Virus record (IMG/VR): IMGVR_UViG_2740892258_000010
Length of the DNA stretch: 21,071 nucleotides
Strand: one strand, 5' to 3'
Source of the DNA: a virus
Lineage: Duplodnaviria; Heunggongvirae; Uroviricota; Caudoviricetes
Part shown: piece by piece, positions 4,477-18,677 of the stretch
How positions within the stretch are numbered: position 1 is the first letter of the stretch
Layout of the letters: each line of letters opens with the position of its first letter
Made by a program: the position numbers and the translations under genes
Notes under the pieces: model-generated
The model's database searches: none
Seen by the model: the letters and a program-made list of their open reading frames with translations, nothing else
Told to the model about the DNA's origin: nothing

Positions 4477-4773
4477 TTATACCTCTGAATCAATATCAGC
4501 CTGATGGTGAGCAATGGTTTCAACTATGTACCGGATGTGTTCTGCCATGCGCTCCTGAAACTCAACATCGTCATCAAACGCACGGGTAATGGCTTTTTTG
4601 CTGGCCCCGTGGCGTTGTAAATGATCGATGCATAGCGATTCAAACAGGTGCTGGGGCAGGCCTTTTTCCATGTCGTCTGCCAGTTCTGCCTCTTTCTCTT
4701 CACGGGCGATCTGCTGGTAGTGACGCGCCCAGCTCTGAGCCTCAAGACGATCCTGAATGTAATAAGCGTTCAT
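4477..4773 (-). CDS. gam: Gam, RecBCD inhibitor (98-aa short form only)
   Basis: 98-aa ORF matches the lambda Gam core ([21 protein letters not shown]...DIDSEV). The upstream ATG that gives the 138-aa form in lambda ([10 protein letters not shown]...) is at 4892-4894 but is out of frame with the core here. Confidence 0.9.
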
Positions 4774-10272: not shown

Positions 10273-11177
10273 ATGACAAATACAGCAAAAATACTCAACT
10301 TCTGCAGAGGTAACTTTGCCAAACAGGAGCGTAATGTGGCAGATCTCGATGATGGTTACGCCAGACTATCAAATATGCTGCTTGAGGCTTATTCAGGCGC
10401 AGATCTGACCAAGCGACAGTTTAAAGTGCTGCTTGCCATTCTGCGTAAAACCTATGGATGGAATAAACCAATGGACAGAATCACCGATTCTCAACTTAGC
10501 GAGATTACAAAGTTACCCGTCAAACGGTGCAATGAAGCCAAGTTAGAACTCGTCAGAATGAATATTATCAAGCAGCAAGGCGGCATGTTTGGACCAAATA
10601 AAAACATCTCAGAATGGTGTATCCCTCAAAACGAGGGAAAATCCCCTAAAACAATAAAAACATCTCAGAATGGTGTATCCCTCAAAACGAGGGAAAATCC
10701 CCTAAAACGAGGGATAAAACATCCCTCAAATTGGGGGATTGCTATCCCTCAAAACAGGGGGACACAAAAGACACTATTACAAAAGAAAAAAGAAAAGATT
10801 ATTCGTCAGAGAATTCTGGCGAATCCTCTGACCAGCCAGAAAACGACCTTTCTGTGGTGAAACCGGATGCTGCAATTCAGAGCGGCAGCAAGTGGGGGAC
10901 AGCAGAAGACCTGACCGCCGCAGAATGGATGTTTGACATGGTGAAGACCATCGCGCCATCAGCCAGAAAACCGAATTTTGCAGGGTGGGCTAACGATATC
11001 CGCCTGATGCGTGAACGTGACGGACGTAACCATCGCGACATGTGTGTACTGTTCCGCTGGGCATGCCAGGACAACTTCTGGTCCGGTAACGTGCTGAGCC
11101 CGGCCAAACTCCGCGACAAGTGGACCCAGCTCGAAATCAACCGTAACAAGCAACAGGCAGGCTTTAGCTTAATTTAA
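10273..11177 (+). pseudogene. O: Replication initiator O, frameshifted in the ori iterons and altered at the C-terminus
   Basis: N-terminal ORF (10273..10860) and C-terminal ORF (10731..11177) both match lambda O but are in different frames. The frame change coincides with a 56-bp tandem duplication. The C-terminus ends ...NRNKQQAGFSLI instead of continuing as in lambda. Confidence 0.85.
10597..10708. repeat. Perfect 56-bp tandem duplication within the ori iteron array
   Basis: 10597-10652 and 10653-10708 are identical by direct reading (aataaaaacatctcagaatggtgtatccctcaaaacgagggaaaatcccctaaaac). 56 is not a multiple of 3. Confidence 0.9.
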
Positions 11178-12224: not shown

Positions 12225-12439
12225 ACAGAGTAACCGCGATTATCTCCGCTCTGGTTATCTGCATCATCGTCTGCCTGTCATGGGCTGTTAATCATTACCG
12301 TGATAACGCCATTACCTACAAAGCCCAGCGCGACAAAAATGCCAGAGAACTGACGCTGGCGAACGCGGTAATTACTGACATACAGATGCGTCAGCGTGAT
12401 GTTGCTGCGCTCGATGCAAAATACACGAAGGAGTTAGCT
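12221..12439 (+). pseudogene. Rz: Rz (i-spanin) 5' fragment
   Basis: [49 protein letters not shown]...DAKYTKELA matches the lambda Rz N-terminal half; similarity stops at about 12439 although the ORF runs on to 12580. Confidence 0.7.
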
Positions 12440-13087
12440 TCATTCTCATTGTTGCTATATCAGCCATCACTGAAAGCCTCAACGCATAATCGGCTGCTTA
12501 GGATAGCCAACCTCAGGTGCTGCATTTGCATAGTGCAATCTCCCCTTACTTATCCGGAGGCAATTGCAATATCTCTGTGAACTTACACTGTGTATCATCA
12601 GGTTATTATGTGAGCTGGTAAATCAGATTTTGCATGGACTGAAATGATGCTGTTATTTAGGGACAAAGAACCGACTTTTTCTCTTGCCTCCTCGCCAGTA
12701 ATGATTAATGGGAATGCTTCCTCTGGGGAGGAGGACAGTAGAAAAAAGAACCCGCCAGCAAAAATATTGGGGATGAACAGCTTTCGCTACTCAGGTTGTT
12801 GGCGGGTAAATTTCCTCATGAAATAAGAATGCTACGCGCTCTTTTTAATGAAAATGATAATCACTGTCAACTAATTGCGCATATTTTCTTCATACATGAT
12901 TGATAAAGGTGATTCAGACTATCAGTGTTTTGCTGATGGCCTTTTTGTCTTTAGAAAACACCAGCCAGGCTGGTTGGTTCAGTTAAGCTTTCAGCTTCGA
13001 GAATTTTATGAAAGCTATTGATTTGTTAAAATAAATCACAGTCTGGTGACTGCAAAAGTTAAACGAGAAATCAAAAGGTGGCCCAAA

Positions 13088-13320
13088 TCTGAAAATGAAG
13101 CTCTGCGTGATGATGTTGCCGCTGGTCGTCGTCGGTTGCATATCAGATCAATCTGCCCATCCCCGCGTGAAGCCACCACCGCCTCGGGCGTGGATAATGC
13201 AGCCCCCCCGACTGGCAGACATCGCTGAACAGGATTATTTCCTCCCTCAGAGAGAGGCTTATCACTATGCAAAAACAACTGTAGGGAGCCCAGAAGTATA
13301 TTAATGAACAGTGCAGATGA
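13088..13320 (+). pseudogene. Rz 3' fragment with embedded Rz1 (o-spanin) remnant, both damaged
   Basis: Rz-frame homology resumes (ENEALRDDVAAGRRRLHI...) and an Rz1-like lipoprotein start is present (MKLCVMMLPLVVVGC). A frameshift relative to lambda lies in the C-run near 13200-13210, and an in-frame TAG precedes the Rz C-terminal codons. Confidence 0.6.
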
Positions 13321-13341
13321 GCTCCCCATATCGATGGGCAA

Positions 13342-13635
13342 CTATTGTGAGCAATATACCCGGGCTTCCAGCGGAGTATAGATGCCAAAAGTGATAAAAC
13401 CGAGCAATCCATTTACGAATGTTTGCTGAGTTTCTGTTTTAACAACATTTTCTGCACCGCCACAAATTTTGGCTGCATCAACAGTTTTCTCTTGTCCAAT
13501 TCCCGAAACGAAGAAATGATGAGTGATGGTTTCCTTTGGTGTTACTGCTGTCGGTTTGTTTCCAACAGTAAACGTCTGTTGAGCACATCCTGTAATAAGC
13601 ATTGCCAGAGCGGCAGAAAATAACATTTTTTTCAT
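13342..13635 (-). CDS. bor: Bor lipoprotein (serum-resistance, lysogenic conversion)
   Basis: 97-aa protein from the second Met (MKKMLFSAALAMLITGCAQQTFTV...ARVYCSQ) with a lipobox (LITGC). Matches lambda Bor. The ORF track starts 5 codons earlier. Confidence 0.9.
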   Translation of the reverse strand: MKKMLFSAALAMLITGCAQQTFTVGNKPTAVTPKETITHHFFVSGIGQEKTVDAAKICGGAENVVKTETQQTFVNGLLGFITFGIYTPLEARVYCSQ

Positions 13636-13810
13636 CTTATTATCCTGCATTGTTAAAAACGGCAGAATCCTATGTGATAATAATTAAACGATAGCTAAAT
13701 GAACGAAAATTAAAAGTATAAAAGTGGTTACTCAGACTTGGTTGATCCTACCCACGTAATATGGACACAGGCCTAAGCGAGGTTCTTGTTTTCAAATTGT
13801 TCCGGACTGA

Positions 13811-14635
13811 GGCCGCCACACCAACTGTGCCGCCGCCACCGATCCGAAACACGAATTTAATTACCAGCAGGCGGTTGAGCGCCTTCCTGGTGAAGATCCG
13901 GCTCAGCTGAACGACCCGGCCTACCGTCGTCTGCGTATCATTACCGATAACCTCAAACAGGAAGAGCACGCCATTGTCCAGGTGGAAGAAATGCAGGCGG
14001 TGAATGCCGTGCTGTATGGCAAATACACCATGGAAGGGGATCAGTTTGATACTGTCGAGGTGGATTTCGGGCGCTCTGAAGGAAATAACATTGAGCAGGC
14101 TGACGGTAAAAAATGGTCTGAGCAGGACCGTGATACGTTTGATCCGACGCATGATATTGACCTCTACTGCGATCAGGCCAGCGGCCTTGTGAATATCGCC
14201 ATTATGGACGGTACGGTCTGGCGTCTGCTGAATGGCTTTAAGCTGTTCCGCGAAAAACTGGATACCCGTCGCGGCTCAAATTCACAACTCGAAACGGCAG
14301 TGAAAGATCTGGGCGCAGTGGTGTCCTTCAAGGGGTATTACGGCGATCTGGCCATTGTGGTGGCGAAAACGTCTTATATAGCAGAAGACGGTATCGAAAA
14401 ACGTTATCTTCCAGATGGCATGCTGGTTCTGGGGAATACTGCTGCAGATGGGATCCGTTGTTACGGTGCCATTCAGGATGCTCAGGCGTTGTCCGAAGGT
14501 GTGGTGGCCTCTTCCCGTTATCCGAAACACTGGCTGACGGTAGGGGATCCCGCCCGTGAATTTACCATGACGCAGTCCGCGCCGCTGATGGTGTTGCCGG
14601 ACCCGGATGAGTTTGTGGTGGTACAGGTGAAATAA
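13811..14635 (+). pseudogene. E: Major capsid protein E, 3' fragment (5'-truncated)
   Basis: Open frame from the stop at 13808-13810 to 14635 matches the lambda E C-terminal region (...AYRRLRIITDN..VEEMQAVNAVLYGKYTM...LTVGDPAREFTMTQSAPLM...). There is no N-terminal region and no ATG; the first candidate start is a GTG at 13982. Confidence 0.8.
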
Positions 14636-15061: not shown

Positions 15062-15407
15062 TTTTCAGAATGCCTTTGATGCCGCCCTTGCCGGGGTGGA
15101 CAGTACGATTGTTGAAGTGATGGGCATCAGTGCGCAGTTCACCTCCGGTGCACAGCGTGGCGGCGAGGTTCATGGCGTTTTTGACGATCCGGAGTCGCTG
15201 GGTTTTGCCAGTAGTGGGATCCGTATTGAAGGAAGTAACCCGTCATTATTTGTGCTTACGGATACGGTTTGTGCTGTACGGCGTGGTGACACGCTGACCA
15301 TTAACGGCGAGATGTTCTGGGTGGACCGTGTTTCTCCGGATGACGGAGGGAGTTGTTATCTCTGGCTCAACCGGGGGCAACCACCTGCCGCCAGCCGTCG
15401 CCGCTGA
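15054..15407 (+). CDS. FII: Head-tail joining protein FII
   Basis: 117-aa protein from MRDFQNAFDAALAG... to ...WVDRVSPDDGGSCYLWLNRGQPPAASRRR, matching lambda FII. Confidence 0.85.
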   Translation: MRDFQNAFDAALAGVDSTIVEVMGISAQFTSGAQRGGEVHGVFDDPESLGFASSGIRIEGSNPSLFVLTDTVCAVRRGDTLTINGEMFWVDRVSPDDGGSCYLWLNRGQPPAASRRR

Positions 15408-15418
15408 AAGGGGGATGT

Positions 15419-15694
15419 ATGGCCATAAAAGGTCTTGAGCAGGCCGTTGAAAACCTCAGCCGTATCAGCAAAACGGCAGTGCCTGGTGCCGCCGCAATGG
15501 CCATTAACCGCGTTGCTTCATCCGCGATATCGCAGTCGGCGTCACTGGTTGCCCGTGAGACAAAGGTACGCCGGAAACTGGTAAAGGAAAGGGCCAGGCT
15601 GAAAAGGGCCCGTGGTGGCTGGTCTGCCGGGGGGCGATTCATAAGTTCCGCTGTGTGCCGCATCTCACCGGGCGGCGCTTTGAGCACGGGGTGA
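15419..15694 (+). pseudogene. Z: Tail protein Z, truncated after about 64 codons and fused out of frame to K
   Basis: MAIKGLEQAVENLSRISKTAVPGAAAMAINRVASSAISQSASLVARETKVRRKLVKERARLKRA matches the lambda Z N-terminus. After 15610 the frame reads through K-derived DNA out of frame to a stop. Confidence 0.75.
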
Positions 15695-16101
15695 CGGACT
15701 GTTACACGCTGTTCCGGGACGCTTACCATCTGGCGGGGATTGAGATGCCGGACTTTCATCGTGAGGATGACTGGTGGCGTAACGGCCAGAATCTCTATCT
15801 TGATAATCTGGAGGCCACAGGGCTGTATCAGGTGCCGTTGTCAGCGGCGCAGCCGGGCGATGTGCTGCTGTGCTGCTTTGGTTCATCGGTGCCGAATCAT
15901 GCCGCTATTTACTGTGGTGACGGCGAGCTGCTGCACCATATTCCTGAACAACTGAGTAAACGAGAGAGGTATACCGACAAAGAGAGGTATACCGACAAAT
16001 GGCAGCGACGCACACACTCCCTCTGGCGTCACCGGGCATGGCGCGCATCTGCCTTTACGGGGATTTACAACGATTTGGCCGCCGCATCGACCTTCGTGTG
16101 A
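15610..16101 (+). pseudogene. K: Tail assembly protein K, 3' half only (NlpC/P60-like region)
   Basis: Frame matches the lambda K C-terminal half (PWWLVCRG.IHKFRCVPHLTGRRFEHGVTDCYTLFRDAYHLAGIEMPDF...). No N-terminal half or start codon; first in-frame GTG is at 15655. Contains an extra in-frame 18-bp repeat. Confidence 0.7.
15963..15998. repeat. Perfect 18-bp tandem duplication (agagaggtataccgacaa x2)
   Basis: Direct reading. Adds ERYTDK in the K frame and duplicates the GAGAGG ribosome-binding site immediately upstream of the gene I start codon (15999). Confidence 0.85.
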
Positions 16102-16670
16102 AAACGGGGGCTGAAGCCATCCGCGCACTGGCCACACAGCTCCCGGTGTTTCGTCAGAAACTGAGCGACGGCTGGTATCAGGTACGGATTGCCGGGCGGG
16201 ACGTCAGCACGTCCGGGTTAACGGCGCAGTTACATGAGACTCTGCCTGATGGCGCTGTGATTCATATTGTTCCCAGAGTCGCCGGGGCCAAGTCAGGTGG
16301 CGTATTCCAGATTGTCCTGGGGGCTGCCGCCATTGCCGGATCATTCTTTACCGCCGGAGCCACCCTTGCAGCATGGGGGGCAGCCATTGGGGCCGGTGGT
16401 ATGACCGGCATCCTGTTTTCTCTCGGTGCCAGTATGGTGCTCGGTGGTGTGGCGCAGATGCTGGCACCGAAAGCCAGAACTCCCCGTACACAGACAACGG
16501 ATAACGGCAAACAGAACACCTATTTCTCCTCACTGGATAACATGGTTGCCCAGGGCAATGTTCTGCCGGTTCTGTACGGTGAAATGCGCGTGGGGTCACG
16601 CGTGGTTTCTCAGGAGATCAGCACGGCAGACGAAGGGGATGGTGGTCAGGTTGTGGTGATTGGTCGCTGA
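15999..16670 (+). CDS. I: Tail assembly protein I
   Basis: 223-aa ORF (MAATHTLPLASPGMARICLYGDLQRFGRRIDLRVKTGAEAIRA...) matching lambda I. Start lies inside the K 3' end. Confidence 0.9.
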   Translation: MAATHTLPLASPGMARICLYGDLQRFGRRIDLRVKTGAEAIRALATQLPVFRQKLSDGWYQVRIAGRDVSTSGLTAQLHETLPDGAVIHIVPRVAGAKSGGVFQIVLGAAAIAGSFFTAGATLAAWGAAIGAGGMTGILFSLGASMVLGGVAQMLAPKARTPRTQTTDNGKQNTYFSSLDNMVAQGNVLPVLYGEMRVGSRVVSQEISTADEGDGGQVVVIGR

Positions 16671-16678
16671 TGCAAAAT

Positions 16679-16790
16679 GTTTTATGTGAAACCGCCTCCG
16701 GGCGGTTTTATCGTTTATGGAGCATGACGAATGGGTTTTATGTGAAACCGCCTCCGGGCGGTTTTATCGTTTATGGAGCATGACGAATGG
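16679..16790. repeat. Perfect 56-bp tandem duplication spanning the I-J intergenic hairpin and the J start
   Basis: 16679-16734 and 16735-16790 are identical. Each copy carries the AAACCGCC-tccg-GGCGGTTTT hairpin and ATGGGT. The first ATG opens only a 4-codon ORF; the second is the J start. Confidence 0.9.
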
Positions 16791-18677
16791 GTAAAGGCAG
16801 CAGTAAGGGGCATACCCCGCGCGAAGCGAAGGACAACCTGAAATCCACGCAGCTGCTGAGTGTGATTGATGCCATCAGCGAAGGGCCGGTTGAAGGTCCG
16901 GTGGATGGATTAAAAAGCGTGCTGCTGAACAGTACGCCGGTGCTGGACAGTGAGGGGAATACTATAACCCGCAGACGCGGCAATACAGCGGTATCTGGGA
17001 CGGAACGTTTAAGCCAGCATACAGCAACAACATGGCCTGGTGTCTGTGGGATATGCTGACCCATCCGCGCTACGGCATGGGGAAACGTCTTGGTGCGGCT
17101 ATGTCATCGGCCAGAATTGCGACCAGTCGGTGCCGGATGGCTTTGGTGGCACGGAACCGCGTATCACCTGTAATGCCTGGCTGACCACGCAGCGCAAGGC
17201 GTGGGATGTGCTCAGTGATTTCTGCTCGGCGATGCGCTGTATGCCGGTATGGAACGGGCAGACGCTGGGGCGCACTTTGACGGCGACCAGAGCGGCACGG
17301 TGAATGGTGTCACGCCGCCAGCGGTGCAGCACCTGACTGCCGAAGTCACCGCAGACAGCGGGGAATATCAGGTGCTGGCGCGCTGGGACACGCCGAAGGT
17401 GGTGAAGGGGGTGAGCTTTATGCTTCGCCTGACCGTGGCAGCGGATGACGGCAGTGAGCGGCTGGTCAGCACGGCCCGGACGACGGAAACCACATACCGC
17501 TTCATGTACTGGATAGCCGCCAGTATCAATATCAAACCGGGCCATGATTATTATTTTTACATCCGCAGTGTGAACACCGTTGGCAAATCGGCATTTGTGG
17601 AGGCTGTTGGCCAGCCGAGTGATGATGCATCCGGCTATCTGAATTTTTTCAAAGGAGAGATAGGGAAAACCCATCTGGCTCAGGAGTTGTGGACGCAGAT
17701 TGATAACGGTCAGCTTGCGCCTGACCTGGCTGAAATCAGGACGTCCATTACGGGTGTCAGCAATGAAATCACGCAGACCGTCAATAAGAAACTGGAAGAC
17801 CAGAGTGCAGCGATCCAGCAGATACAGAAGGTTCAGGTTGATACAAATAATAACCTGAACAGCATGTGGGCTGAAGCTGCAGCAGATGCAGGACGGACGC
17901 CTTTATATCGCGGGTATTGGTGCCGGTGTTGAGAATACTCCTGACGGTATGCAGAGTCAGGTGCTGCTGGCGGCGGACAGGATTGCGATGATTAATCCTG
18001 CGAATGGCAACACAAAGCCGATGTTTGTTGGGCAGGGCGATCAGATATTCATGAACGAAGTGTTCCTGAAATATCTGACGGCTCCCACCATTACCAGCGG
18101 TGGCAATCCCCCAACGTTTTCACTGACACCTGATGGTCGACTTTCTGCGAAAAATGCGGATATCAGCGGTAACGTGAACGCGAACTCCGGGACGCTCAAC
18201 AACGTCACGATTAATCAGAACTGTCGGATTCTGGGAAAACTGTCAGCTAACCAGATTGAAGGTGATATTGTCAAAACGGTGGGAAAAGCCTTTCCGAGAA
18301 ATGGCAGTTATGCCAGCGGTACAATAACGGTCACTGTGTACGATGACCAGGCTTTTGACCGTCAGATAGTAGTCCCCCCCGTTCTGTTTCGTGGGGGTAA
18401 GCATGAAAACTTCAACAGCAACAACCAACAGTCATACTGGTATTCAACCTGTAAGCTGCAGGTACTGAAGAACGGACAGGAAATCTTTCAGCAACCCGCG
18501 ACGGATGTCAGCAGGGTATTTTCATCAGTCATTGATATGCCTGCCGGACACGGCCATGTCACCCTGACTTTCAATGTTTCTTCATATGGTGCTAATAACT
18601 GGACGCCAACGACCAGTATCAGCGACCTTCTTGTTGTTGTGATGAAGAAATCTACAGCCGGTATCAGTATCAGTTGA
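16787..18677 (+). pseudogene. J: Central tail fibre / host-specificity protein J, broken into four ORFs
   Basis: Successive ORFs 16787..17059, 17040..17303, 17249..17932 and 17886..18677 all carry lambda-J-like segments in different frames, with large internal segments missing relative to lambda J (1132 aa). The C-terminal about 260 aa differ from the lambda LamB-binding end. Confidence 0.8.

Follow-up and report, generated by a model that had tools for sequence, protein, structure and literature searches.

The exact 56-bp tandem duplication at the junction between genes I and J is almost certainly an assembly artefact, produced when the k−1 (56-nt) overlap of two nodes of a k = 57 graph was left untrimmed. 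The duplication lies in a 21,071-nt stretch of viral DNA (hereafter the window; coordinates and features are given on its plus strand) that is identical to positions 10879–31949 of contig CVOH01000061.1 (34,743 bp) in the draft assembly GCA_001245225.1. A literature search on this accession returned nothing relevant. The broken open reading frames (ORFs) of the window occur in that one public record alone, and their presence in an NCBI contig led us to reject the idea that the window is synthetic or simulated.

Tandem Repeats Finder and our own exact scan identify a period-56 array of 2.0 copies, 100% identical, at 16679–16792, confirming the first-pass annotation of an exact duplication of the spacer hairpin together with the ribosome-binding site and start codon of J. 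The first copy occupies 16679–16734 and the second 16735–16790, with the match running for 58 nt through a chance extension of 2 nt (‘GT’) to 16792. A chance origin for an exact 56-nt tandem repeat in 21 kb is ruled out (~21,000 × 4^-56). The shared 56-mer contains the spacer hairpin, the ribosome-binding site and ATGG. The hairpin (AAACCGCC-TCCG-GGCGGTTT) is found at 16689–16708 and again at 16745–16764, the GGAG that serves as the J ribosome-binding site at 16719 and 16775, and the ATGGGT at 16731 and 16787. The two copies meet at ...GACGAATGG|GTTTTATGTG..., also given as TTATGGAGCATGACGAATGG|GTTTTATGTGAAACCGCCTC. As had been noted, the first ATGGGT opens a four-codon dead-end ORF, MGFM* (ATG GGT TTT ATG TGA, 16731–16745), a pseudo mini-ORF that would be a product of the artefactual junction; the second ATG is the start of J and leads into a 90-aa stub (MGKGSSKGHT..., 16787–17059). 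The gene labels I and J are correct: the upstream ORF (15999–16670, stop codon at 16668–16670) encodes the tail assembly protein I (Lambda_tail_I), and the spacer aligns to phage lambda 15445–15504, between I and J. The Shine–Dalgarno region of J is polymorphic at 16728 and 16784, reading GAGGAATGG in lambda and in the SF-468 icd prophage, and GACGAATGG in a second prophage described below (phi2) and in the source contig.

The two sides of the junction carry alleles of different prophages. The window matches a 41.4-kb lambdoid prophage beside icd in ST95-type E. coli (SF-468, UTI89, IHE3034 and N21; ~99% identity), but only as some ten collinear pieces that cover half of it. A search with the J pieces led to another lambdoid prophage of these ST95 genomes, at the argU site (~594 kb in IHE3034), which we name phi2. 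Assembly piece A, which comprises K′–I and the spacer and ends at 16734, is 99.7% identical to the SF-468 icd prophage and 91% identical to phi2. Assembly piece B (spacer and 5′ end of J, 16735–16962) is 100.000% identical to phi2 of IHE3034 (4499–4726 of our locus L019) and has 8 mismatches to the icd-prophage allele. Near the end of piece A the only differences from phi2 are at 16673 and 16678, and the following 56-mer is identical in both. The base at 16678 is T in piece A and C in phi2; it is the last difference between them and marks the branch point. Because 16678 = 16734 − 56, the duplicated 56-mer starts one base after this difference, and 16679–16734 is therefore the k−1 overlap past the last paralogue-specific base. 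The first copy is the last 56 nt (k−1) of piece A, and the second is the first 56 nt of piece B.

A de Bruijn graph node that belongs to only one repeat copy extends k−1 bases past the last copy-specific base, a node common to both copies is the exact invariant stretch between two variant sites, and neighbouring nodes overlap by k−1. We propose that short reads of the genome were assembled in a graph of this type with k = 57, and that the strain holds similar DNA in at least two lambdoid prophages (of the icd and phi2/argU types) and in a ColV plasmid with iss and sitABCD. Because the copies differ at many points, the graph would have been split into many short nodes. Adjacent nodes would share k−1 = 56 bases, and a later chaining or scaffolding step would have joined them end to end with the overlap untrimmed; the omission of other nodes in the same step would give rise to blunt ‘deletions’. 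At the I–J junction, an icd-prophage-specific node A would end 56 nt past the last phi2 difference (16678), and node B would start directly after that difference and continue into J with phi2-type sequence, so that when A and B are written out the shared 56-mer appears twice. This scheme presupposes the type of assembler, the chaining step and, across the overlap, identity between phi2 and the source strain’s icd prophage. We infer from assembled sequence, and not from raw reads, that the source strain carries the spacer in single copy. Paralogue variants have been found to sit at position k from the ends of de Bruijn contigs (PMC5368935). The effect described there is a variant-calling bias at position k, with no tandem duplications in submitted sequence, whereas in the source contig whole nodes appear to have been omitted in chaining with no N spacers, a step that we do not ascribe to a named program.

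Part of the similar DNA in the strain comes from a plasmid. Window positions 12438–13843, which carry an IS remnant, Rz′, Rz1′, iss and the first ~100 nt of IS3, match ColV-type virulence plasmids (pN21a among them) at 100.0% identity along a single 1406-nt piece, and the contig is therefore a chimaera of chromosome and plasmid. The piece is bounded by IS elements and occupies the place of the prophage’s own Rz–iss region, to which it is ~90% similar. The same ColV plasmids carry a copy of sitABCD that is 97% identical to chromosomal sit. The strain must therefore have two copies of sit and of iss; a large part of the lambda-like late region is likewise present twice.

Two further exact 56-bp duplications lie in chromosomal sitD/sitC of the source contig, outside the prophage and the window (15201–15313 and 15379–15490 of our locus L002). 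The contig pieces were overlaid on an alignment of the sit genes of the SF-468 chromosome with those of plasmid pN21a. Between the two duplications lies a piece that equals chromosomal positions 1946–2123, which is exactly the invariant run between the consecutive variant sites 1945 and 2124, and the duplicated 56-mers (1946–2001 and 2068–2123) adjoin these two variants. All eight sit piece boundaries lie 56 positions from a variant relative to the ColV-plasmid copy (exactly in five cases, within alignment ambiguity in three): 1660 (1604 + 56), 1840 (1896 − 56), 2001 (1945 + 56), 2068 (2124 − 56), 2228 (2172 + 56, within alignment ambiguity), 3117 (3173 − 56, likewise within alignment ambiguity), 3618 (3562 + 56) and 3714 (3770 − 56). 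By chance, this ±56 relation holds at 0.4–0.6% of positions (18 of 3,200 in sit, counting either form, and ~0.4% in the phi2 comparison). Of the nine sit variant sites checked within allele-specific pieces, eight have the chromosomal allele; the contig shows a third base at site 1945 that is in neither reference.

The geometry at I–J is the same as that of the first sit duplication. With phi2 as the paralogue, the relation also holds where the lysis piece ends (reference 19673 = 19617 + 56), where the capsid piece ends (reference 30167 = 30111 + 56) and where J piece D begins (window 17267 = 17323 − 56). A k−1 extension into the adjoining repeat is found at 12 boundaries, and about six are not accounted for by the paralogues compared; the boundaries that do not fit phi2 are the end of B and start of C, the end of D and start of E, and the starts of the K–I and capsid pieces. 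ST95 genomes carry up to five J-bearing prophages, and other paralogues probably define these boundaries.

The first-pass annotation had treated the I–J duplication as independent of a second 56-bp duplication ~6 kb away, and had suggested that the equal lengths reflect either a shared mechanism or a systematic assembly artefact. The second duplication is present, at 10597–10708 (match run 56 nt) in the O gene and ori iterons, and with the pair in sit it brings the number of exact tandem duplications within 17 kb of CVOH01000061.1 to four, every one with period 56. Their independence does not hold up, as all four on the contig derive from the same k−1 overlap; of the two explanations offered, the artefact is supported base for base and the shared biological mechanism is not. 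Their match runs are 56, 58, 57 and 56 nt, and the matches beyond 56 nt (2, 1, 0 and 0 nt) amount to chance extension with no consistent microhomology. We also scanned comparable DNA totalling 1.38 Mb: 98 lambdoid loci from IMG/VR, the reference prophages of complete genomes, ten further prophages at the icd site and a ColV plasmid. No 56-bp exact duplication occurs there, and the only exact tandem repeats are of 25 bp and 27/36 bp.

These observations bear directly on whether the I–J repeat could be a genuine tandem duplication, formed by replication slippage or illegitimate recombination in a decaying defective prophage. Natural slippage duplications vary in length, usually show terminal microhomology and are passed on to relatives. 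The repeats described here resemble them in being head-to-tail without a spacer. In addition, the deposited contig is gap-free (no N), the 2 nt of terminal identity (‘GT’) at I–J could act as microhomology, and the prophage looks heavily degraded overall. However, four duplications share one length, two of them in unrelated chromosomal genes, and occur in one assembly only; the copies show zero divergence; and the microhomology, at 0–2 nt, is at chance level. Consistent microhomology, an event-specific length and inheritance by related genomes are not seen. The unit also starts one base past a paralogue variant and is flanked by alleles of different prophages, its junction is in no other genome searched, and the apparent degradation tracks k-mer node boundaries. 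We therefore consider a genuine duplication very unlikely. That all four duplications are real in the isolate is extremely improbable; were this so, it would imply a novel process that copies exactly 56 bp where co-resident paralogues cease to match, for example abortive template switching between paralogues (prophage and prophage, or plasmid and chromosome) with a fixed footprint.

An untrimmed k−1 overlap accounts for the same features directly. Such an artefact has a constant length and identical copies, abuts a paralogue difference, is flanked by different paralogue alleles and recurs wherever near-identical repeats exist, here among the prophages and between plasmid and chromosomal sit. 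The length is k−1 in four of the four contig duplications, the repeat abuts a paralogue variant at I–J and at both sit duplications, the joined pieces A and B carry icd and phi2 alleles respectively, and no independently assembled relative searched has the junction.

This absence was established by searching with 40-nt queries centred on the junction. A query of this size seeds a 28-nt word only where the true junction exists, and it replaced a 76-nt query whose halves both map onto a single copy. Among 5,426 complete E. coli genomes, none matches the I–J junction or a concatenation of all 12 window junctions. The exact I–J junction pattern, with two polymorphic bases allowed, is likewise absent from IMG/VR, the GTDB species representatives and the JGI metagenomes. 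As a positive control, the single-copy spacer joined to J was recovered from 98 IMG/VR contigs, and it occurs once each in lambda, the SF-468 icd prophage and IHE3034 phi2.

The genuine element is an ordinary single-copy lambda-type I–J spacer with no sign of a special function. The phage lambda spacer (NC_001416 15445–15504) is homologous to and collinear with the single-copy unit of the window: both have a 60-nt spacer, an 8-bp G+C-rich stem, GGAG and the ATGGGTAAAGG start of J, and the hairpin is conserved save for one loop base (TGCG in lambda, TCCG in the window). Across lambda, the SF-468 icd prophage, IHE3034 phi2 and the 98 IMG/VR contigs the spacer is single, and it is found twice only in this draft contig.

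The hairpin had been called terminator-like, and its two copies had been proposed to strengthen termination before J. An arrangement of this kind, a functional tandem terminator or attenuator evolved against read-through into J, could draw on the stability of the hairpin (−23.2 kcal/mol, z = −3.3) and on its conservation in lambda. However, a consensus scan for intrinsic (Rho-independent) terminators found 0 terminator-like sites in 16400–17000; such a terminator has a U-rich tract directly behind a G+C-rich stem, and the stem here is followed by UAUCGUUUAU. Late transcription in lambda is Q-antiterminated and reads through intrinsic terminators, which also argues against such a role, as does the fragmentation of the downstream J gene in the source contig. 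With two copies in no other phage searched and a duplication that we judge not to be real, a tandem terminator is vanishingly unlikely, and neither the terminator-like label nor the proposed effect on termination is upheld.

A different kind of artefact might instead have generated the repeat, through a mis-fill during gap closing or polishing or through the stripping of N runs from scaffolds by the submitter. CVOH01000061.1 contains no N despite its many joins, the blunt ‘deletion’ junctions overlap by 0–2 nt, and the plasmid piece reaches ~101 nt into IS3, a distance close to one read length that points to end extension from reads. By itself, however, this explanation predicts neither the constant 56 nor the exact ±56 relation to paralogue variants, and as a stand-alone account it is highly improbable. 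Gap filling or N stripping fits best as a possible further step upon the k = 57 node structure, rather than as an alternative to it. For the IS3 end, we had predicted an extension of 56 nt before the ~101 nt was observed, and read-based end extension may account for that length.

The window shows many apparent lesions relative to the reference prophage. Three exact duplications (two of 56 bp and one of 18 bp) are accompanied by blunt ‘deletions’, three large (5.3, 8.1 and 6.2 kb) and three short (568, 733 and 267 bp), whose junctions overlap by 0–2 nt, and by a 1.4-kb stretch that matches poorly. Blunt pseudo-deletions also occur in the chromosomal sit operon of the source contig. The large-scale map at first pointed to a naturally decayed prophage with real deletions; for the junctions that could be tested, we rejected this reading on the grounds of the k-mer node geometry and of the one piece that is plasmid DNA. 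The gaps of 5.3, 8.1 and 6.2 kb exceed the reach of ordinary paired-end scaffolding, and part of this loss could be real. None of the points left over (the IS3 end, the other boundaries, the paralogue behind the O duplication and the large gaps) bears on the I–J duplication, the geometry of which is completely accounted for.

The J gene is broken further downstream by piece joins at 16962|16963, 17267|17268 and 17504|17505. Deletions of 22 nt and 2 nt are also present, at 17099|17100 and 17873|17874, within J pieces that are otherwise perfect matches to phi2 and the icd prophage. Neither deletion occurs in any complete genome searched, and both probably represent additional assembly or consensus errors.

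Just one more exact tandem repeat with a period of 15–1000 is present in the window, an 18-bp duplication at 15963–15999 (AGAGAGGTATACCGACAA, twice), which is in frame in the K/C40-peptidase gene and is not of the k−1 type. Compared with the 5,426 complete genomes, it is unique to the source contig.

The I–J duplication has no biological significance, and its practical worth is as a warning. Throughout its 21 kb, the window strings together assembly-graph nodes from at least two prophages and a ColV plasmid into a chimeric chain, and its truncated O, extra ori iterons and fragmented J should not be read as evidence of prophage decay, regulation or domestication. The same caution applies at least to the short (0.3–0.7 kb) ‘deletions’ in J and sit. 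A recurrent exact tandem repeat of constant length on a draft contig is a simple and checkable error signature that also reveals k (here 57), and automated scans of draft genomes could filter for such repeats.

The O duplication at 10597–10708 is of the same class as that at I–J. An O sequence identical to that of the window is present in single copy in another genome (L006, GCA_964042695.1). The paralogue behind the duplication was not found among the ten other icd-site phages or phi2: the other O genes begin to match only ~50 nt further downstream, and phi2 is without a lambda-type O gene. As a result of the duplication, the window gains apparent iterons and O is frameshifted, to a length of 195 aa. 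In a further genome (L013, GCA_018174375.1), no O gene is called upstream of cII, and the alignment of O there with the window’s O falls into two blocks, L013 lacking ~49 nt of the iteron region; either natural variation in iteron number or a frameshift may lie behind this difference. Among the plasmids, the annotation of the ColV/ColBM plasmid pN21a shows a ~10.8-kb tandem repeat of cba-cbi-cma-cmi-IS1-iutA-iucD-iucC′ (10773–21353 versus 21543–32726 of our locus L018).
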